Of a stretch of 36,740 nucleotides of DNA, positions 933 to 35,748 are shown one piece after another. Origin of the DNA: an uncultured Eubacteriales bacterium (lineage in GTDB: Bacteria > Bacillota > Clostridia > Oscillospirales > Acutalibacteraceae); assembly GCA_964597515.1 (NCBI GenBank), contig CAZQXZ010000001.1, positions 1-36,740 on the forward strand, read 5' to 3'. Within the stretch, counting starts at the first letter, position 1. Each line of letters opens with the position of its first letter. Both the position numbers and the translations under genes were made by a program. The notes under the pieces are model-generated. The model was not told the origin of the DNA, searched no databases, and saw only the letters and a program-made list of their open reading frames with translations.

Positions 933-954
933 CCGCCGCGCGCCGCAGGGGTCT

Positions 955-990
955 AAGAAAGCAAAGCCGTTTTGCGGGCTTTGCTTTCTT
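955..990. terminator. Bidirectional intrinsic terminator between convergent sleB and the radical-SAM gene
   Basis: Perfect 14-bp stem AAGAAAGCAAAGCC / GGCTTTGCTTTCTT (955-968 / 977-990) with an 8-nt loop and A/T-rich ends. Confidence 0.6.
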
Positions 991-1007
991 AATTATAGTG
1001 TTCTGTT

Positions 1008-2495
1008 TTATGATTTATTGGTTTTCGCGGGAGGGATAGCGGATATTATTTCCACAGATGTTTCCGTTTTCCCCTTATCCTTTATGTGCTTTTGCCCCTC
1101 GGGCGTATCCCTGTAATACTGGGTATGAGTCTTGGGATGCTGCGTGGAATTCCAAAGCTCTTCGGCGACAGGCTCCCAAGCGCGCGCGAACGCGTCGCAC
1201 TTTGAGCAGAGCGTCTCAACGTCCTCGTATGACAGAAAATCGGAGGATTTCGCCCCTGTCTGTTTTATTATTTCACGCAGCCTGTCAGGATTTTCAAGCA
1301 TCGGGCAGGGGCGCAGATGGTTGTCATTAAAAGGCTGGTTTTTTCTGTAAGCCATAAACAAAGGATTGTTCAAAGCCTCCAAAAGCGTATGCGTGCGGAT
1401 GTTGGAATCGGAATAATGAATAAAGACGCAAGGCTCGATATCGCCCGCGGAATTGATGTGAAAATAGTTCCTTCCGCCCGCTATACAGCCGCCGACATAT
1501 TCGCCGTCGTCCTGAAAATCCACAACGAACAACGGCTTGCCCGTTTTGGCGTTCCTGATTTTCCGCATCCAGCCGTACATAAATTTTCTCTGCTCGGGAG
1601 TCGGGATAAGCTCTTTGTCGGCGCCCTGCCCCAGCGGCATATAATTGAAGTACCACGCGTATTTCGCGCCGTTTTCCACAAGAAAGTCCAAAAAGGTTTC
1701 GTTTGTAACGCTCGGAATATTCTTTTGCGTGTAGCAGACCGATACGCCGAATAAAACCTTGTTTTCCCTTAACAGCTTCATGGCGGACACGGTTTTATCA
1801 TAAGAACCGCCGCCCCTTCTGAAATCCGTATACTCTCTTTCACCCTCAATGCTGAGGGCAAGCGTGATGTTACCCGCTTTATGAATATCCTCGCAAAACT
1901 TTTGGTCAATTAGCGTGGCGTTTGTGTATATAAGGAAAAAACAATCCGTATTCTCCATGCACAGCGTCAGGACATCGTCCTTTCTCATCAGAGGTTCGCC
2001 GCCGGTCATCATATAGTTATGGGTGCCCATTTGCTTGCCCTGCGCAACGATACTCCTCATCTCGTCAAGCGTGAGGTTCTGCTCATACCCGTACTGAGCC
2101 GACCAGCAGCCCTTGCACTTGCGGTTGCAGGCGCTCGTCGGGTCAAACAGTATGGTCCACGGAATGTTTATATTAAGCTTATCGCGTTTTTCCCTTACGG
2201 TTTTCGTGCCGTAGTATCCCGCGTGAAGTCCGAGCGCCAAAAGCATCGTCTTGATGTCGTTCCTGTCCACATCGGAAAGAACGCTCAAAGCAAGTTTGCG
2301 GTATACATTATCGGGGTCGCCAATTCCACTTTTCAGAGCGTCAAAGTATTTTTGGGGAAAGAGTCCCCCAAAAAACTTTTCAGCCCTTACAATCAGCTCG
2401 AGCAGATTTTTTTCAGGGTCCTTATCAACATAACTTAAAATTTTATCAAGTATAAATGAAGCCGACGCGTGCTGTGTTTTGTGTTTCATAGCCAT
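1008..2495 (-). CDS. Radical SAM enzyme with ~110-aa N-terminal extension and Cys-containing C-terminal domain; monocistronic
   Basis: CX3CX2C motif CNRKCKGC followed by GGEPL. Downstream Cys motifs GGCIAGG..EPCVF..RPCP. RBS AAGGAGAG lies 8 nt before the ATG. The gene has its own promoter and terminator. Confidence 0.85.
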   Translation of the reverse strand: MAMKHKTQHASASFILDKILSYVDKDPEKNLLELIVRAEKFFGGLFPQKYFDALKSGIGDPDNVYRKLALSVLSDVDRNDIKTMLLALGLHAGYYGTKTVREKRDKLNINIPWTILFDPTSACNRKCKGCWSAQYGYEQNLTLDEMRSIVAQGKQMGTHNYMMTGGEPLMRKDDVLTLCMENTDCFFLIYTNATLIDQKFCEDIHKAGNITLALSIEGEREYTDFRRGGGSYDKTVSAMKLLRENKVLFGVSVCYTQKNIPSVTNETFLDFLVENGAKYAWYFNYMPLGQGADKELIPTPEQRKFMYGWMRKIRNAKTGKPLFVVDFQDDGEYVGGCIAGGRNYFHINSAGDIEPCVFIHYSDSNIRTHTLLEALNNPLFMAYRKNQPFNDNHLRPCPMLENPDRLREIIKQTGAKSSDFLSYEDVETLCSKCDAFARAWEPVAEELWNSTQHPKTHTQYYRDTPEGQKHIKDKGKTETSVEIISAIPPAKTNKS

Positions 2496-2808: not shown

Positions 2809-4173
2809 TTGGAGAAAAGCAAGCTCGGCGGGCGCATCTGGTTCAACCTCATAATTTTCGGATTTATGGGGCAGATAGCGTGGAATGTGGAGAATATGTA
2901 CTTCAACACATTCCTGTACAATTCGGTCTATCACGGCGCTTCCCAGGCGGCGGTTGACGGCTCGGTTGACGTGATGACCGCCATAAGCGTTATGGTCGCG
3001 GCGAGCGCCGCCACTGCCGTTATCACTACTTTTCTTATCGGGACGCTGAGCGACAAGCTCGGCAGGCGAAAGATTTTCATTTCCCTCGGTTATGTGCTGT
3101 GGGGGCTCGTAACTGCCGCCTTCGGCTTTATCACGCGCGAGCACACTGCCGCGCTGTTCGGTATTGCGGACGAGGTTTCAATACTCTCTCTCACCGTCGC
3201 GACAGTAATTGTACTCGACTGCGTGATGACCTTTATGGGCTCCACAAGCAATGACGCGTGCTTCAACGCGTGGGTTACGGATGTTACGACGGTTAAAAAC
3301 AGGGCTACGGCGGAAAGCGTCCTCGCCATTCTCCCCATAGCCGCTATGGTCGCCGTAATGGCTTTAGCGGGCGTTATCGCGGATTTCGGATACCAGGTGT
3401 TTTTCTATCTGCTCGGCGGCGTCGTGTCCGTCTGCGGTATTATAGGCATTGTATCCTTAAAGGATTCCGGGGACAAAGTTAAAAAGGATACCTCGTATTT
3501 CGGGGAGCTTATTTACGGATTTAAGCCGTCGGTTATAAGGGAAAACAACCGGCTTTACCTTGCGCTTGCGTCCGTCTGCATCTTTTCGACGGCGGTACAG
3601 GTATTTTTCCCATACATATTTATATATATCTCAAACGGTCTCGGGCTTGACCTTGACAATCTCTTAGGCGGCCTCACGCCCGGGGCTATGGCGGGCGCCG
3701 CAATAGGATTTGCCGTTGTCGTCGCCGTTATTGTTTCAATGGGCAAAATTATTGATAAATTCGGCAAGGACAGGTTTATAATCGCTTCAATCGTTGTTTT
3801 TATAATAGGTCTTACGCTCGCGGGCTTCGCGAAGAAGCTTTCGGTGTTCTCCGTCGTGGCTATTCCGGCTCTTTTGGGCTACGGTCTTTTGATGATTATG
3901 CTCAACGCCGCTGTGCGCGACTTTACGCCGAAGGACAAAACAGGTCTTTTTCAGGGCGTCAGAATGATATTTTTCGTCCTTATACCGATGGTTGCGGGAC
4001 CTTTTATCGGGAACCTTGTATGCAGGGTATCCGAGGTAAAATATATAAACGAATACGGCGTTTCAACCTCCGCGCCCGGCTCCGTAATGTTTATCGCGGC
4101 GGCCGTTATCTCTCTGTTCATCTTTATCCCTATTCTGTCTTTAAAGAAAAAGGGCTTTGATCCTGAAAAATAA
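2809..4173 (+). CDS. MFS transporter (probably sugar/glycoside type)
   Basis: 454 aa with about 12 hydrophobic segments. TTG start 8 nt after AAGGGGA. The ATG at 2801 is out of frame and stops quickly. Confidence 0.8.
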   Translation: MEKSKLGGRIWFNLIIFGFMGQIAWNVENMYFNTFLYNSVYHGASQAAVDGSVDVMTAISVMVAASAATAVITTFLIGTLSDKLGRRKIFISLGYVLWGLVTAAFGFITREHTAALFGIADEVSILSLTVATVIVLDCVMTFMGSTSNDACFNAWVTDVTTVKNRATAESVLAILPIAAMVAVMALAGVIADFGYQVFFYLLGGVVSVCGIIGIVSLKDSGDKVKKDTSYFGELIYGFKPSVIRENNRLYLALASVCIFSTAVQVFFPYIFIYISNGLGLDLDNLLGGLTPGAMAGAAIGFAVVVAVIVSMGKIIDKFGKDRFIIASIVVFIIGLTLAGFAKKLSVFSVVAIPALLGYGLLMIMLNAAVRDFTPKDKTGLFQGVRMIFFVLIPMVAGPFIGNLVCRVSEVKYINEYGVSTSAPGSVMFIAAAVISLFIFIPILSLKKKGFDPEK

Positions 4174-8617: not shown

Positions 8618-8632
8618 AGCAATAATATTTTT

Positions 8633-8793
8633 GGTAGAGGCGCGGCTTATCATTATTAGCTGCCGCAAACCCCAAAGGCGGGGGCGGTATTTGAAAGGGA
8701 TAGTCGCCGAGACTTTCCGGAAGCCTTTTTCCGGAATGTCGGGACGCCGCATAAAATGCCGCGTTCTGTCACAGAAATGTGGAGCGCTATCAC
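8633..8793 (+). promoter_or_regulatory. Lysine riboswitch (L-box)
   Basis: GGTAGAGGCGCGG ... TTGAAAGGGATAGTCGCCGAG ... GGGACGCCGC ... TCTGTCACAG ... GGAGCGCTATC. These match the conserved L-box blocks of the B. subtilis lysC leader (AGAGGUGC, GAAAGGGGAGCGUCGCCGAAG, CUGUCA) as I recall them. Confidence 0.8.
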
Positions 8794-8804
8794 ACGTTAA
8801 AACA

Positions 8805-11394: not shown

Positions 11395-11408
11395 AACAGT
11401 TGCCAAGT

Positions 11409-11503
11409 AAATACAGGGGTGCTGATTAAAATCGGCTGAGATGAGAGCTATTAGCTTTTAAACCCTTAACCTGATGCGGATAATGCCGACGAAGGGAGTA
11501 TGG
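11409..11503 (+). promoter_or_regulatory. TPP riboswitch (THI element)
   Basis: ACAGGGGTGCTG...GGCTGAGA...AACCCTTAACCTGATGCGGATAATGCCGACGAAGGGAG. This is the canonical THI-box core (GGGGUGC, CUGAGA, ACCUGAU..GGAUAAUGCC..GAAGGGA). Confidence 0.85.
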
Positions 11504-11524
11504 AAGCAGCAATTCCAAAACCTA

Positions 11525-11587: not shown

Positions 11588-12175
11588 ATGAAAAAAGTAA
11601 GAATACTTGTCGAGAGCGCCGTTATGATAGCCTTGGCGACAATTTTAAGTGTTTTCTGCGTATATAAGCTTCCGTTCGGCGGCTCGGTAACGCTTTTAAG
11701 CCAGCTTCCCATTATACTGATATCTTACCGTCACGGTATAAAGCACGGTCTGATAGCCGGTGTCGTTATGGGAGTTTTACAGATGCTGCTCGGCGCACAA
11801 AATTTCAGCTATGTCACGGGCATTGCCGCGATGATAATCCTCGCCTTTTCGGATTATCTTGCCGCATTCGGCTCCTTGGGACTTGGCGGAATATTCAGAA
11901 AACGCTTTGACAGACCGGTTTTAGAGCTTGCCTTAGGTTCTGTCGCCGTGTCTTTGATGAGATATTTATGCCATATCATATCGGGCGTCACTATATGGAG
12001 CGGCTACGCGCCGGAAAATCAAACAGTACTTTATTACTCGGTAACATACAACGGTCTGTATATGCTTCCCGAGCTTATAATAACCGCCGCAGGCGCCGCC
12101 GCTATCGGCTCCGCCTTCGACCTGCTCTCCCCCGAAATCAAGCTGCGCCCCAGAAAAAAGGACGGCAAATATTAG
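11588..12175 (+). CDS. thiT: Thiamine transporter ThiT (ECF S-component)
   Basis: ATG lies 9 nt after AGGAGG. Six TM segments. Resembles B. subtilis ThiT/YuaJ (GGSV, RY..HIISG, YS.TYNG.YMLPE). Lies behind the THI-box. Confidence 0.8.
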   Translation: MKKVRILVESAVMIALATILSVFCVYKLPFGGSVTLLSQLPIILISYRHGIKHGLIAGVVMGVLQMLLGAQNFSYVTGIAAMIILAFSDYLAAFGSLGLGGIFRKRFDRPVLELALGSVAVSLMRYLCHIISGVTIWSGYAPENQTVLYYSVTYNGLYMLPELIITAAGAAAIGSAFDLLSPEIKLRPRKKDGKY

Positions 12176-12272
12176 GAAAACGAGCTGTGCTTTATAACGC
12201 AAGCACAACTTTAATTCAAGCAGGGACGCAGTCTCCCGAAGCCTTTATCTTCCCGCCCGCCTCAATATACTC

Positions 12273-13757
12273 TTATTTATGATACAACTGTTTTCTCTCA
12301 TAATGCGGCTCGCAGGTCAGGTTTATCCCGAGCTTCCTGTAAACGTCCCTGTCCACCTGCGAGAGAATGACCGTGGAGTGTGCCTCGCATCCCCGCAGCT
12401 GCGGCAGCGCGCCGAACGCGAGGGCGGCGTTTTCGCTCGTCGTGGCGCTCATGGAAAGCGCTATTAAAACCTCGTCCGTATGCAGGCGGGGGTTTCTGTT
12501 GCCTAAAAACCGCGTCTTCAAATCCTGAATAGGCTCTATAATCTTCGGGTCGATAAGCGTTATTTCATCAGCCTGCCCGCTTATGCTTTTCAGCGCGTTG
12601 AGCAGGGCGGCGGAGGATGCTCCCAAAAGGTCGGAGGTCTTGCCCGTCACCGTCGCTCCGTTTTGAAGCTCTATGGCGACGGCGGGCTGATTGCCCGTCA
12701 TCTCGCTTTTTTCGATTGCCTTTTTAATTACCGTTCTGTAATCTACGCTTATCCCCGCCTGATTCATCAGGCTTTCTATTTTTAAAATCGCCTCGTCGCA
12801 TTTATGACCGTTTCTCGCGTCACAAAGTGTCGCGAAATACCTGCGTACAATTTCCGCTTTCGACGCTTCGCGGCAAGCCTCGTCGTCGCTTATACAGTAG
12901 CCCGCCATATTGACGCCCATATCCGTAGGAGATTTATATGGGCTTTTGCCCTCGATTTTTTCAAATATCGTGTTAAGAACCGGAAACACTTCCACATCGC
13001 GGTTGTAATTTACCGTTTTCTCTCCGTATGCTTCAAGATGATACGGGTCTATCATATTTACGTCATTTAAGTCGGCGGTCGCCGCCTCATAAGCGAGATT
13101 TATCGGGTGCTTGAGCGGAATGTTCCATATCGGAAAGGTCTCAAATTTGGCATAACCGGCTTTTATGCCCCTTAAACTGTCGTGGTAGAGCTGCGAAAGG
13201 CATGTCGCCATCTTGCCGCTGCCCGGACCCGGCGCGGTTATAACGACCAGAGGACGCTGTGTTTCAATGTATTCGTTCTTCCCGAACCCGTCCTCGCTGA
13301 CGATTTTCGCCACGTTGTAGGGATACCCCTCGATAGAATAATGGACGAACACCCGAACGCCGTGCTTTTCAAGCTTCTCCCTGAAAACCGACGCGACCTC
13401 CTGACCGCTGTACTGGGCTATAACGACGCTGCCCACATAAAGCCCGACGCTGCGAAACGCGTCGATAAGCCTTAAAACGTCGCTGTCGTATGTAATCCCG
13501 AGGTCGCGCCTTATTTTATTGCTCTCTATGTCCCCCGCGTTAATGACTACAACCACCTCGACGCTGTCGCCGATATTTGTAAGCATGCGCAGCTTGCTGT
13601 CAGGCTCAAATCCGGGCAGCACGCGCGACGCGTGGTAATCGTCAAAAAGCTTGCCGCCGAATTCCAAATAAAGCTTGCCGCCGAACTCGTTGATACGCCG
13701 CTTTATCTGCTGCGATTGCTCTTTAACATACAAATCAATGTCAAATCCCGTTTTCAT
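12273..13757 (-). CDS. DUF1846 / UPF0371 family protein
   Basis: 494 aa. N-terminus ...GKLYLEFGGKLFDDYHASRVLPGFEPDSKL is characteristic of UPF0371 proteins. Confidence 0.85.
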   Translation of the reverse strand: MKTGFDIDLYVKEQSQQIKRRINEFGGKLYLEFGGKLFDDYHASRVLPGFEPDSKLRMLTNIGDSVEVVVVINAGDIESNKIRRDLGITYDSDVLRLIDAFRSVGLYVGSVVIAQYSGQEVASVFREKLEKHGVRVFVHYSIEGYPYNVAKIVSEDGFGKNEYIETQRPLVVITAPGPGSGKMATCLSQLYHDSLRGIKAGYAKFETFPIWNIPLKHPINLAYEAATADLNDVNMIDPYHLEAYGEKTVNYNRDVEVFPVLNTIFEKIEGKSPYKSPTDMGVNMAGYCISDDEACREASKAEIVRRYFATLCDARNGHKCDEAILKIESLMNQAGISVDYRTVIKKAIEKSEMTGNQPAVAIELQNGATVTGKTSDLLGASSAALLNALKSISGQADEITLIDPKIIEPIQDLKTRFLGNRNPRLHTDEVLIALSMSATTSENAALAFGALPQLRGCEAHSTVILSQVDRDVYRKLGINLTCEPHYERKQLYHK

Positions 13758-25088: not shown

Positions 25089-25093
25089 GCATT

Positions 25094-25164
25094 CAGATGG
25101 CAGATGGCAGATATCAGATGTCAGACGTCAGATTTATAAGGAAAACGCAGAGCGTTTTTGGATT
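25094..25164 (-). repeat. Hairpin-plus-six-heptad element, copy 1 (minus orientation)
   Basis: Minus strand: AATCCAAAAACGCTCTGCGTTTTCCTTATAA + ATCTGAC GTCTGAC ATCTGAT ATCTGCC ATCTGCC ATCTGAA. It is homologous to 33826-33898. Confidence 0.8.
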
Positions 25165-25199: not shown

Positions 25200-25215
25200 T
25201 GTTCCACGTGGAACA
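25200..25215. other. parS site (perfect 16-bp palindrome)
   Basis: TGTTCCACGTGGAACA, compared with the Firmicute parS consensus TGTTNCACGTGAAACA. Confidence 0.75.
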
Positions 25216-25334
25216 GAGAATTTAACTGGAAAACAGTAAATTAAGAGAGGGCTTGCGCCCTTGCCTGATTTTAATTGGGGTGCGGGGCGTTGCCCCGCCC
25301 ATAATTTTCCATTTTCAATTTTTAATTTATTTTT

Positions 25335-25350
25335 TGTTCCACGTGGAACA
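25335..25350. other. parS site (identical second copy)
   Basis: TGTTCCACGTGGAACA, 135 bp from the first copy and abutting the EF-G terminator U-run. Confidence 0.75.
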
Positions 25351-32362: not shown

Positions 32363-32487
32363 ATTTCCCATCCGTAAGCGCGGGCTGAAACGGTAAACGC
32401 GAAAAGCACTGCCCGCGCCTGTTTAAATCGTCAAGCGTGGGTTTATTTAAATTTTACATATAGAATATTTTAAGGACTGAGCGTTTT

Positions 32488-32913
32488 ATGCTTTTAGGAA
32501 TATCACCGATTATTTCTCCCGAGCTTCTGAAAATACTTTGTGAAATGGGTCACGGCGATGAAATAGTCATAGGCGACGGCAATTTCCCCGCCGCCTCCGT
32601 TGCCAATAGGCTTATACGCTGTGACGGACACGGCGTTTCGGAGCTTCTTACCGCCATTCTAAAACTGTTCCCGCTTGACTCCTATGTCGAAAGCCCCGTA
32701 ACGCTTATGCAGGTTACGCCGGGGGATACGACGGTACCCGTTATCTGGGACGAATACAAAAAAATAGTGTCAGACGCCTGTCCGAATACAAGGGTTTCGG
32801 AAATTGAGCGCTTCGCTTTTTATGAGAGGGCTAAAAACGCCTACGCCGTAATCTCGACGGGCGAGCCGGCTCTCTATGCAAATATCATTCTGAAAAAAGG
32901 CGTTATAAATTAG
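32488..32913 (+). CDS. fucU: L-fucose mutarotase (RbsD/FucU family)
   Basis: ISPIISPELLKILCEMGHGDEIVIGDGNFPA...RFAFYERAKNAYAVISTGE..YANIILKKGV closely parallels E. coli FucU as I recall it. Confidence 0.85.
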   Translation: MLLGISPIISPELLKILCEMGHGDEIVIGDGNFPAASVANRLIRCDGHGVSELLTAILKLFPLDSYVESPVTLMQVTPGDTTVPVIWDEYKKIVSDACPNTRVSEIERFAFYERAKNAYAVISTGEPALYANIILKKGVIN

Positions 32914-32952
32914 CCTTTTTCAAAGAAATAAATCGGAAGGAAGGAAAATTAT

Positions 32953-33816
32953 ATGCCGGTTACTTCATTCACGGATATCTTTAAGGTTTACTGGTCTGTT
33001 CTTTGCGCTCTGATGCTTATCATATCCGGTGTGCTGCCTCTGGCTGTCCCCGAGGGTGCTGTTCTTATTGACACTCAAACCTTCGTTATGACGGACGCTC
33101 TCACACGCGCTCAGGGTATGACTACCGATGGGGAATACTACTATTTCAGCTCTAATTATTTCCTTATCAAGACTACGCTTGAAGGTGAAACAGTAACGAA
33201 AAACCTAATGGCAATTCCCGCCGACCTTTTGCTTCGCGGCTCGAACCACATCGGCGGGTGCAGTTATTACGACGGGAAAATCTATGCCGCCGTAGAGGAC
33301 GGGAGCGATTATCTTTATCCGTATATCGTGATTTATGACGCTTTGACCCTTGAATATACAGGACAGAGATATTTGCTTCCGCAGGAGCTTCATATCGACG
33401 GCGTTCCGTGGTGCGCCGTGGATTCCGACAGGGGATACCTTTATACCGCCGAATGGAACCACGCCTGCGCGCTCAACGTTTTCGACCTTGACACGATGGA
33501 GCTTGTAAAGACCGTTCCTTTTGTGGATGAATTGAATAATTTAATTGAGCTTCACCGTATACAGGGCAGCGAGGTGTACGCGGGAACTCTCTACTGCTCA
33601 AGCGATATCGGAGAAACTCAGCCCGTATATTCCGTAAATCCCGATACGGGGCTTGTCGCCGAGCTTTTCAACCGCAACCTCGGCGAAGGAGCTGAAGCGG
33701 AGGGGATGACTATTCTTGAAGACGCAAGCGGCGGATTTATAATAGTAACTATGGATATCGGGCAGTTAGGCGGAGTCCCCATAAACGTTAATATAAGAAA
33801 ATATGTATTGAATTAG
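32953..33816 (+). CDS. Hypothetical exported or membrane-anchored protein, probably beta-propeller-like
   Basis: N-terminal hydrophobic anchor. Recurrent G-x-T/S-x-DG..YY / G.LY motifs. I do not recognise a family. Confidence 0.55.
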   Translation: MPVTSFTDIFKVYWSVLCALMLIISGVLPLAVPEGAVLIDTQTFVMTDALTRAQGMTTDGEYYYFSSNYFLIKTTLEGETVTKNLMAIPADLLLRGSNHIGGCSYYDGKIYAAVEDGSDYLYPYIVIYDALTLEYTGQRYLLPQELHIDGVPWCAVDSDRGYLYTAEWNHACALNVFDLDTMELVKTVPFVDELNNLIELHRIQGSEVYAGTLYCSSDIGETQPVYSVNPDTGLVAELFNRNLGEGAEAEGMTILEDASGGFIIVTMDIGQLGGVPINVNIRKYVLN

Positions 33817-33825
33817 CCCGATTAT

Positions 33826-33898
33826 AATCCAAAAACGCTTTGCGTTTTTCCTTTAAATCTAATGTCTAATATCTAATATCTAAAATCTAAAATCTAAA
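33826..33898 (+). repeat. Hairpin-plus-six-heptad element, copy 2 (plus orientation), directly upstream of the fucI SD
   Basis: AATCCAAAAACGCTTTGCGTTTTTCCTTTAA + ATCTAAT GTCTAAT ATCTAAT ATCTAAA ATCTAAA ATCTAAA. The hairpin at 33832-33851 also serves as the terminator of the upstream gene. Confidence 0.8.
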
Positions 33899-33915
33899 CT
33901 TCGGGGGTTTTATTT

Positions 33916-35748
33916 ATGAATTATCCTAAAATCGGTATCAGACCTATCATTGACGGACGCTGGGGAGGCGTCAGGGAAAGCCTTGAAGAAAAAACAGCGG
34001 CGATGGCAAAAGCCGCGAAGGAACTTATCGAGTCCAACTGCTTTTATACGGACGGCTCTCCGGCCAAGGTTGTCATTTCTCCGTGCTCGATAGGCGGCGG
34101 GGCGGAAGCCGCCAAATGCGCCGAGTATTTCAGCACCCAAAATGTATGCGCGACGCTTTCGGTGACTCCGTGCTGGTGCTACGGCAGCGAAACAATGGAT
34201 ATCGACCCCCTAACCGTCAAGGCAGTATGGGGCTTTAACGGTACGGAGCGTCCCGGCGCGGTATATCTCGCGGCTGTAATGGCTGCGCACGCGCAAAAGG
34301 GGCTTCCGGCTTTTTCTATTTACGGGCATGACGTTCAAGACGTCTCCGACAACATCATACCCGACGATGTCAGGGAAAAAATACTGCGCTTCGCGCGCTG
34401 CGCCTTGGGCGTGGGTCAGATGAAGGGAAAGACCTATGTCGGCATCGGGAACGTATCAATGGGAATTATGGGCTCTTACTGCGACGCCTCGTTTTTCCAG
34501 AAATATCTCGGTATCCGCCCCGAGTGGGTGGATATGTGCGAGGTCAGCCGCAGGGTAGAGCTTGGAATATATGACCGCGAGGAATTCCAAACGGCTCTTA
34601 AATGGGTAAAGGAACACTGTCCGGAAGGGTTTGATAAAAACCCCGCCGTCAAAAAAGAGGGTATAGACTACGTTCAGTCCACGCGTGAGCGCAAGGACTG
34701 GGAGTGGGAGTACGTCGTTAAAATGACGCTCATATGCCGCGACATTATGCTGGGCAACCCGAAGCTTGACAGCGTAGTCCCCGTCGGGGACCAGGCAAAA
34801 AAGGCGGGCGCCGTATTTACCGGCTGGCACGAGGAAGCGCTCGGTAAAAACGCGATTATGGGCGGCTTCCAAGGTCAGAGGCAGTGGACAGATCATATGC
34901 CCAACTGCGATTTCACCGAAGCTCTTCTCAACACAAGCTTTGACTGGACCGGCAAGAGAGAGCCTCTTGTTTTTGCTACCGAGAACGACGGTCTCAACGG
35001 AGCGTCCATGCTTTTCGGGAAGCTTATTACAAACGCGGCGGTCATGTTCTCGGACGTCCGCACATATTGGAGTCCCGAAGCCGTAAAAAGGGTTACGGGC
35101 TACGCGGTGGAGGGCAAGGCGGCAAACGGGTTTATCCACCTTATCAACTCGGGCGCGACCGCGCTCGACGCGACGGGCGCGAGCAAGGATAAAAACGGCA
35201 GCGCTCTTATGAAAAAGTGGTGGGACGTCACCGAGGAGGATATAGACGCTATGCTTAGCGCCACGGATTGGTGTCCGGGAGACAAGGGTTATTTCAGAGG
35301 CGGTGGGTACTCCTCGCACTTTAAGACGCTTGCCGAAATGCCGGTCACGATGATAAGGCTTAATATTGCCGACGGCGTAGGTCCGTTCTTACAAATAGCC
35401 GAGGGCTATACCGTAACGCTGCCCGACGAGGTTCACAAGACGCTCGATATGAGAACCGACCCCACCTGGCCTACCACATGGTTCGCCCCGAATTTGACCG
35501 GCGCCGGTCCGTTTAGGGACGTCTATTCCGTTATGGCGAATTGGGGCGCGAACCACGGCGCTATCGCTTACGGTCATATCGGAGGCGATATTATAACGCT
35601 CGCGAGCATGCTGCGTATTCCCGTCGCGCTTCACAATGTAAGCGACCGCGATATTTACCGCCCGCACTCCTGGGGCGCGTTCGGTACAAAGGAGCCGGAG
35701 AGCGCCGATTACAGGGCATGCGCGGCATACGGTCCGCTGTACGGATAA
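33916..35748 (+). CDS. fucI: L-fucose isomerase
   Basis: N-terminus [24 protein letters not shown] matches E. coli FucI ([24 protein letters not shown]). 610 aa. Confidence 0.9.

Follow-up and report, generated by a model that had tools for sequence, protein, structure and literature searches.

Based on comparison with related loci, we propose that the 73-nt feature preceding fucI is the solo terminal 3' ('B') arm of a family of selfish cassettes that resemble rRNA intervening sequences (IVSs) and carry a PF05635 gene, and that it is passive at this locus. We put the probability of this reading at roughly 70%. PF05635 is the family of the 23S-rRNA-intervening-sequence protein S23p, an Avd-like four-helix bundle. 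The proposal draws on three bodies of evidence: the organisation of the element within the 36,740-nt stretch of DNA analysed here (the window), the physical coupling of heptad arrays and PF05635 genes in other genomes, and a covariance model built from PF05635 flanks that recognises both window copies. Coordinates of the features are collected in Table 1.

Table 1. Features of the window relevant to the fucI-proximal element
Feature	Position	Strand	Remarks
Long hairpin AAGAAAGCAAAGCC...GGGCTTTGCTTTCTT	953-1018		between convergent genes
Lysine riboswitch	8627-8797	+	87 bits, Rfam gathering score
TPP riboswitch	11405-11514	+	66.6 bits, Rfam gathering score
Copy 1, solo arm: AATCC, hairpin AAAACGC-tct-GCGTTTT, linker, six xTCTGxx heptads	25092-25164	-	AATCC 25164-25160, hairpin 25158-25142, heptads 25133-25092
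parS-like palindromes TGTTCCACGTGGAACA	25200-25215 and 25335-25350		perfect palindromes
Empty composite element between the two parS-like sites	25216-25334	-	absent from L200
hyp, conserved hypothetical gene, 287 aa	32953-33816	+	no Pfam or NCBIfam match
Promoter-like TTGAAG-16-TATAAT, candidate fucI promoter	33716-33743	+	inside hyp 3' end
Copy 2, central-spacer remnant CCCGATTATAATCC	33817-33830	+	upstream consensus ata.aAatccA
Copy 2, match to covariance model R1	33822-33881	+	35.7 bits, E = 1.2e-5
Copy 2, hairpin B AAAAACGC-TTT-GCGTTTTT	33831-33849	+	8 bp, -6.3 kcal/mol
Copy 2, CC-rich linker CCTTTAA	33850-33856	+	
Copy 2, six tandem xTCTAAx heptads, pyrimidine-sense arm	33857-33898	+	predicted unstructured
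fucI ribosome-binding region	33899-33918	+	GGGGG at 33903-33907, start codon 33916

The element at fucI and its second copy

The open reading frame downstream of the element encodes L-fucose isomerase, FucI (equivalog-level match), and fucU lies upstream, with hyp between the two. Over positions 33826-33898 an AATCC motif, hairpin B, the CCTTTAA linker and six heptads (ATCTAAT, GTCTAAT, ATCTAAT, ATCTAAA, ATCTAAA, ATCTAAA) follow one another. The array had been described in the first-pass annotation as reaching to the fucI ribosome-binding site, and it does so: CTTCGGGGG stands directly 3' of the heptads and 4 nt separate the array from that site. The array is far beyond chance. It has a period of 7 with 5.9 copies and 91% matches (TRF), and a three-heptad pattern gives 4 overlapping matches where 0.01 is expected. 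A hairpin close to the hyp stop codon (33814-33816) had also been reported; it is present, at 33831-33849 rather than 33832-51, and starts 14 nt past the stop codon instead of 16 nt. Its assignment as the hyp terminator is unlikely, because the hairpin is weak, its U run is paired with an A run within the stem and the terminator scan made no call; it contains three G-C pairs. Read-through into fucI with the array in the 5' UTR, one of the two earlier suggestions, is plausible given this weak, uncalled hairpin.

A -35/-10 scan of positions 32400-34100, with sigma-70-type hexamers spaced 16-18 bp apart, returned a single promoter-like site, within the 3' end of hyp; the initial statement that no convincing pair is seen outside the array is corrected accordingly. 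This site is kept in the relative L200, and in L206 as TTGACG-17-TATATT, and falls in conserved coding sequence. hyp is a real conserved gene, since its protein is 58% identical over the full length to its L206 counterpart. An exact-protein look-up of hyp found no record. The syntenic contigs were reached through FucI homologues; besides the window, L200 and L206 alone have hyp between fucU and fucI, and the arm accompanies it in every case.

The states of these relatives indicate that the element is gained and lost and that its length is not fixed at six, a constancy that had been raised for comparison. L200 (FucI 95% identical) has the same element with five heptads and the ribosome-binding site GGAGG. 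In L206 (FucI 84%) the linker and first three heptads are almost identical to those of the window and are followed by debris and 70 nt, and the hairpin carries compensatory substitutions and a paired insertion (AAGAACCGC/GCGGTTCTT). L205 (FucI 89%) has the hairpin only and no hyp, and L201-L204 (FucI 87%) have a fucU-fucI spacing of 40 nt and no element. That the linker and three heptads are almost identical in the window and L206, when the hyp proteins share only 58% identity, is easier to reconcile with selection for a function, or with gene conversion, than with a relic in decay. Simple decay does not explain it, which leaves room for a trans-acting binder or for gene conversion. One public contig with an identical FucI (L199, positions 1-47) begins within the heptad array, so its assembly broke at the repeat. 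Fragments of an ISL3-family transposase lie directly 3' of fucI in L201-L203 (~12035-12484), and the polysaccharide-synthesis genes beyond them vary among relatives.

The second copy of the module that had been announced exists on the minus strand (copy 1). Its heptads read ATCTGAC, GTCTGAC, ATCTGAT, ATCTGCC, ATCTGCC and ATCTGAA, with G at unit position 5 throughout where copy 2 has A. The order A, G, A at unit position 1 is common to both window copies, L200 and L206. Copy 1 is flanked by convergent noc/parB-like and EF-G genes and located between two terminators; it has four heptads in L200 and is absent from L201, L204 and L206. The conclusion that the module is not a fucose operator holds, as it is a dispersed repeat also found away from fucose genes.

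Close to copy 1 lies an empty composite element. On the minus strand it runs from A-rich heptads through the hairpin GCGGGGC-aac-GCCCCGC with ACCCC and a spacer to the hairpin AAGGGC-gcaa-GCCCTC and a T-rich arm. Two perfect palindromes of parS-like appearance bracket the composite, and the noc/parB-like gene lies upstream of both. There is a single such site in L200; L201 and L204 each have a pair spaced by 22 nt, and in L206 two sites enclose a larger composite. At the other end of the window, three weak T-rich heptads (GTGTTCT, GTTTTAT, GATTTAT) follow the long hairpin at 953-1018, which may represent another degenerate arm or chance. Neither the window nor 15 related loci yielded an Rfam family for the element, whether matches were judged by gathering score or by E-value, and a tRNA search found none.

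Heptad arrays flank PF05635 genes

What kind of element do these copies belong to? Scanning one genome per species for ACGC-N3-5-GCGT with ATCT heptads behind it yielded 79 loci, and the module AATCCA, AAACGC-N3-4-GCGTTT, CC-rich linker and G-poor heptads is dispersed in Ruminococcus/Oscillospiraceae genomes. Rumen Ruminococcus MAGs show it as a clear family with the consensus AATCCAAAACGCgaaGCGTTTCCCTTCAC(TGTTATC)n; one MAG has at least 13 copies, and copies mostly form inverted pairs. The usual Ruminococcus form is a composite whose A side comprises purine-rich AGAGAAY or AGATAAY heptads, AGTGAAGG and the GC hairpin A; the centre runs from ACCCGATT... through a spacer to ...AATCCA; and the B side comprises hairpin B, CCCTTCAC and pyrimidine-rich heptads. 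The 14 nt between hyp and hairpin B compare with this centre, and copy 2 retains CCCGATTATAATCCA, the central spacer of empty composites. The arms of the Ruminococcus composites abut neighbouring stop codons or ribosome-binding sites, and the genes beside them are unrelated housekeeping genes (rpsM, clpP, purF, htpG, murI, galE and rpe among them).

In a metagenome scan the hairpin was found unchanged and attached to quite different heptad units, with 9% G in the downstream tract. The strict window-type pattern had no match in metagenomes, and a heptad-only pattern was discarded as unspecific (more than 119 viral matches). On viral contigs there was no clear bias for a hairpin upstream of the array (21 versus 17 of 118). 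The loci examined hold 291 period-7 arrays, 163 of them not pattern-selected. Two Verrucomicrobiota loci (L164 and L165, ~3840-3900) carry a hairpin and AATCTGA/AATCTTA heptads that end ~10 nt before a tRNA gene.

The identity of the parent element emerged from loci in which hairpins A and B are ~400 nt apart (L130, also L183 and L225): between the L130 hairpins lies a 119-aa open reading frame that belongs to PF05635 (E = 3e-22). A complete cassette consists of purine-rich tandem heptads, often hairpin A, a PF05635 gene of ~120 codons and its stop codon, followed by AATCYA, hairpin B, a CC-rich linker and pyrimidine-rich heptads, the two heptad arms being mutual reverse complements. An all-ORF profile search placed PF05635 genes exactly abutting pattern matches in Thermoanaerobaculia (L185), Acidobacteriaceae (L128) and Ignavibacteria (L175). 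The 3' arm in L128, TAA-tgg-ACGCgaaGCGT-tgttcctaa-AATCTAA CCTCTAA TATCTAA, shares with the window both the ATCTAAx heptad and the TTCCTAAA linker.

Heptad arrays also accompany PF05635 genes recruited purely through protein homology, and are reverse-complementary wherever both sides are seen: GGATAAY/TTATCCR in L230, GGTGAAG/CTTCACC in L240, TTAGGAG/CTCCTAA on the phage contig L241, GGTTAAC/GTTAACC with a triplicated B arm in L246, AGTGAAA/CTTTTCA in L247 and AGTAAGA/CTCTTAC with twelve B-arm units in L248; L244 has the same layout, with arrays flanking PF05635. L242 and L243 carry PF05635 genes without clear arrays. Altogether, 10 of 17 PF05635 ORFs have arrays of at least three copies on both sides, purine-rich upstream and pyrimidine-rich downstream, and arrays usually comprise 4-6 units. 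Of the inverted array pairs 349-449 nt apart, 8/9 enclose PF05635, and of those 15-210 nt apart, 0/~40 hold such an ORF. Empty versions (arms 15-210 nt apart) and solo arms far outnumber full cassettes.

The coupling is seen in Firmicutes, Acidobacteriota, Ignavibacteria, phage contigs, cyanobacterial plasmids and Riemerella. On curated plasmids, cassettes sit between nrd (ribonucleotide reductase subunit) genes in Nostoc edaphicum (L250; TAGGGAG x7/CTCCCTA x5), between cas6 and cas4 on pANA02 of Anabaena sp. 90 (L251; TGACAGG x8/CCTGTCA x4), between cas10/cmr2 and cmr3 in Picosynechococcus PCC 7003 (L253) and before sufB in Riemerella (L254). Stanieria has the same layout, and Nostoc PCC 7120 an array on the 3' side only. 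In Ruminococcus (L122/L124) a PF05635 cassette or an empty version occurs in the operon between rpmJ and rpsM. Whole cassettes are predicted to fold into an RNA panhandle in which the arms pair over 30-34 bp around the ORF (z = -7.8 and -7.3).

Arms may also be multiplied, with three successive B arms behind one PF05635 gene in L246 (1852-2071) and two successive A arms ahead of the gene in L175 (200-420). Inverted heptad arms in L124 (2093-2497) and L215 (2032-2311) surround ~280-400 nt of non-coding DNA without PF05635, with a long internal inverted repeat GTCATTGCGAGG...CCTCGCAATGAC; this interior may represent another type of cargo or encode a structured RNA. A search for decayed PF05635 genes in these two interiors and in the window flanks found none.

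The membership of the window copies was assessed with a covariance model, R1, whose only input was the 3' flanking sequence of six PF05635 genes; the window contributed nothing to it. R1 matches copy 2 (Table 1), and copy 1 with 25.2 bits (E = 0.0034), these E-values being rough owing to a short calibration. Over 100 kb comprising the window and syntenic loci, its only matches with E < 1 are copies 1 and 2 and the two orthologous L200 copies, and it detects 54 arms in 273 kb of Clostridia loci, among them A-side arms lying on the opposite strand. Both window copies have the arm architecture of AATCYA, short hairpin, CC-rich linker and tandem G-poor heptads. Neither the window nor the syntenic loci hold a partner arm, the sole TTAGAT-type array in the window being the opposite strand of copy 2 itself, and jackhmmer, hmmsearch and a six-frame search of the flanks detected no PF05635 in the 36.7-kb window or the syntenic loci. 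Copy 2 is therefore a solo arm, and a parent cassette in this organism is assumed.

Other readings of the array

An alternative that we regard as unlikely is that the array functions as an operator at the RNA level in the fucI 5' UTR, where a protein would bind one heptad per subunit or monomer and control translation or RNA structure. Possible binders are a PF05635 protein from another part of the genome and a cold-shock protein, whose domain recognises seven nucleotides. In the heptanucleotide bound by CspB, C is strongly preferred at position 3, as is T at positions 2, 4 and 6 (PMC1904285), in agreement with the xTCTxxx core that is invariant in 12/12 window heptads. The predicted single-stranded state of the array, its end just before the ribosome-binding site, the conservation of the linker and three heptads in L206, and the presence of a co-oriented ribosome-binding site and ATG within ~110 nt of 17/29 B arms all speak in its favour, as does the deposition of the PF05635 homologues 2RLD and 2GSC with five chains each, given arrays of usually 4-6 units. 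However, the unit varies by copy, and arms lie near gene ends or in convergent gaps about as often as at gene starts, with downstream genes that share no common functional theme. As a general rule, the cold-shock-protein TCT code is weakened because TCT/AGA occurs in only 70 of the 163 unselected arrays; GTTAACC, CTTCACC and CCTGTCA lack TCT.

It is less probable still that the solo arm has been co-opted as a host expression element, with the hairpin protecting the 3' end of the upstream mRNA or attenuating transcription and the G-poor heptads providing an unstructured ribosome standby for fucI. Compensatory changes preserve the L206 hairpin, the array is predicted to be unstructured, and many loci have arrays that reach the ribosome-binding site, 14-30 nt from the ATG. 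Against this stand the weakness of the hairpin, which was not called as a terminator, and L201-L204, which express fucI with a 40-nt spacer and no element. For copy 1, between its two terminators, such a role is impossible.

That the heptads themselves form the fucI promoter or a DNA operator, the second of the earlier suggestions, is very improbable. TAAAAT boxes recur within the heptads and TATAAT occurs at 33823-33828, within the spacer remnant, but the -35 partner is absent in both cases, kin arrays of other units (GTTAACC, CTCTTAC, CTTCACC) have no -10-like hexamer, copies occur in convergent intergenic regions, and a better promoter-like site lies inside hyp. We give equally little credence to a plain microsatellite generated by slippage, adjacent to a hairpin by coincidence and unrelated to the cassettes: among long simple repeats in prokaryotes, heptanucleotides are the most frequent (Mrazek 2007, as cited in PMC4679880), and relatives differ in copy number, but the shared A, G, A variants at unit position 1, the AATCCA, hairpin and CC linker flanks conserved across genomes and the matches to R1, built from PF05635 flanks, argue against it.

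Other classes of regulatory element were considered and set aside. The operators of HutP and TRAP are likewise periodic short motifs in single-stranded leader RNA, and HutP sites have a 7-nt period. The element here has no UAG or GAG triplets, in contrast to these, its units (AUCUAAN or AUCUGNN) vary between family copies, and no regulator is encoded nearby. Rho utilisation involves C-rich, G-poor RNA of ~60 nt with YC contacts at a period of ~10 nt, and the Rho primary binding site has a 10-nt period (bioRxiv 10.1101/2022.08.29.505764); the element resembles rut sites in being periodic and G-poor, but is A/U-rich, with a period of 7 and a span of 42 nt. We also considered that TAnnAT ahead of AATCCA might mark a promoter that would place the hairpin at the transcript 5' end; this idea was dropped, as the box does not recur consistently among copies and has neither a -35 element nor a TG extension. 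By inspection, the composite fits no consensus for a bidirectional promoter/terminator. Stop codons in all three frames are a property of the window arrays and not of TTATCTG or AATCTGC arrays.

Relation to known elements and implications

The closest counterparts of the cassettes are the IVSs in the 23S rRNA genes of Coxiella burnetii and Leptospira, where a PF05635/S23p ORF of ~120 codons lies inside terminal inverted repeats that form a ~28-bp stem. These IVSs are selfish, sporadic and horizontally acquired; that of Coxiella carries S23p and a 28-bp terminal stem cut by RNase III, with its origin and mobility unresolved (PMC4990558). The cassettes are predicted to fold alike. Unlike the IVSs, which occupy rRNA helices, they lie between protein-coding genes, have arms made of tandem heptads to which a further hairpin is often added, and have many empty and solo derivatives; in the window copy both the ORF and the partner arm are missing. 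A second parallel is the (ATCTTTC)n tract of hmw1A in Haemophilus influenzae, an xTCTxxx array of variable repeat number in a 5' UTR. When transcribed, it pairs with a purine-rich arm into a long hairpin processed by RNase III, and processing is needed for repeat-number change (PMC12721329). The window array has no complementary arm. hmw1A also differs in being an isolated contingency locus at which expression follows repeat number, with no PF05635 gene or dispersed family described.

Arrays with a similar arrangement have been reported without explanation: the TAACTGA repeats of Beggiatoaceae, cyanobacteria and Bacteroidetes, the paired sites of Geobacter metallireducens and the heptamers of Nostoc (PMC4679880, PMC2700814, bioRxiv 10.1101/2022.06.06.494920). 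They comprise 2-6 or more tandem heptads just before start codons or as opposite-strand pairs at many unrelated loci; their unit sequences are different, and those papers draw no link to PF05635 or to cassettes. Empty composites, with their terminal inverted repeats, small size, lack of coding capacity and multiple copies, recall MITEs and palindromic repeats (Correia, ERIC, RUP, BOX, REP/BIME), which are also short, non-coding and intergenic, including within operons, and the ends of the empties match a gene-carrying parent in the same MAG. The window copy has one arm only. In contrast to MITEs, no transposase was seen, inspection of the composites revealed no target-site duplications, the heptad arms vary in number, and the only gene of the parent encodes a four-helix-bundle protein. 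Empties and solo arms resemble MITEs and solo ends of a parent element. No mechanism of mobility was found for cassettes or arms. PF05635 also resembles Avd (PMC10053308) of diversity-generating retroelements, but no reverse transcriptase, template repeat or variable repeat accompanies the cassettes.

Based on these parallels, we suggest that the cassettes are relatives of rRNA IVSs living between genes. Given the shared design, they could sit inside host operons and be cut from the transcript, and would be tolerated there because the stem formed by the two arms is processed, presumably by RNase III as in rRNA IVSs and H. influenzae hmw. Empties and solo arms would be deletion derivatives. What remains at fucI is hairpin B, the linker, six heptads and 14 nt of central spacer. 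Such a solo arm would be unable to form the panhandle and most likely lies passive in the hyp-fucI spacer, transcribed by read-through or from a putative promoter inside hyp, where it would supply a weak hairpin and an unstructured, G-poor leader beside the ribosome-binding site. Slippage would drive the drift in heptad number.

What are the implications of this proposal? For fucI itself the outcome is deflationary, the array being read as a relic of a repeat family rather than as dedicated fucose control. The wider interest lies in two older puzzles. Bacterial tandem heptanucleotide arrays have been on record for decades without explanation, and genes annotated as PF05635 ('four helix bundle' or 'S23') are frequent orphans with no assigned function. 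Unexplained heptad arrays and S23p-carrying IVSs were both known already; as for a link between heptad arrays and PF05635, the literature searched, whose coverage is incomplete, gave no report that joins S23 or four-helix-bundle proteins with repeats of heptamer, STRR or tandem type. Here arrays and genes are physically coupled in at least five phyla and in phage contigs, in a structure that mirrors the RNase III-excised rRNA IVSs and that occurs inside operons (cas6-cas4, cmr2-cmr3, nrd genes, suf, rpmJ-rpsM). We venture, as a doubtful extension, that many unexplained bacterial heptanucleotide arrays, among them the cyanobacterial STRR-type arrays, TAACTGA repeats, Geobacter paired sites and window-type arrays, are arms, empties or solo ends of one unrecognised class of PF05635 cassette; that a PF05635 oligomer recognises the arms at about one unit per subunit to mobilise or regulate them; and that solo arms are sites acted on in trans that modulate their neighbours. 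In practical terms, the arms break assemblies and can pass for regulatory sites. Both puzzles now become questions that can be posed directly: whether cassettes are excised from host transcripts by RNase III, whether the protein binds the heptads and how the cassettes move.
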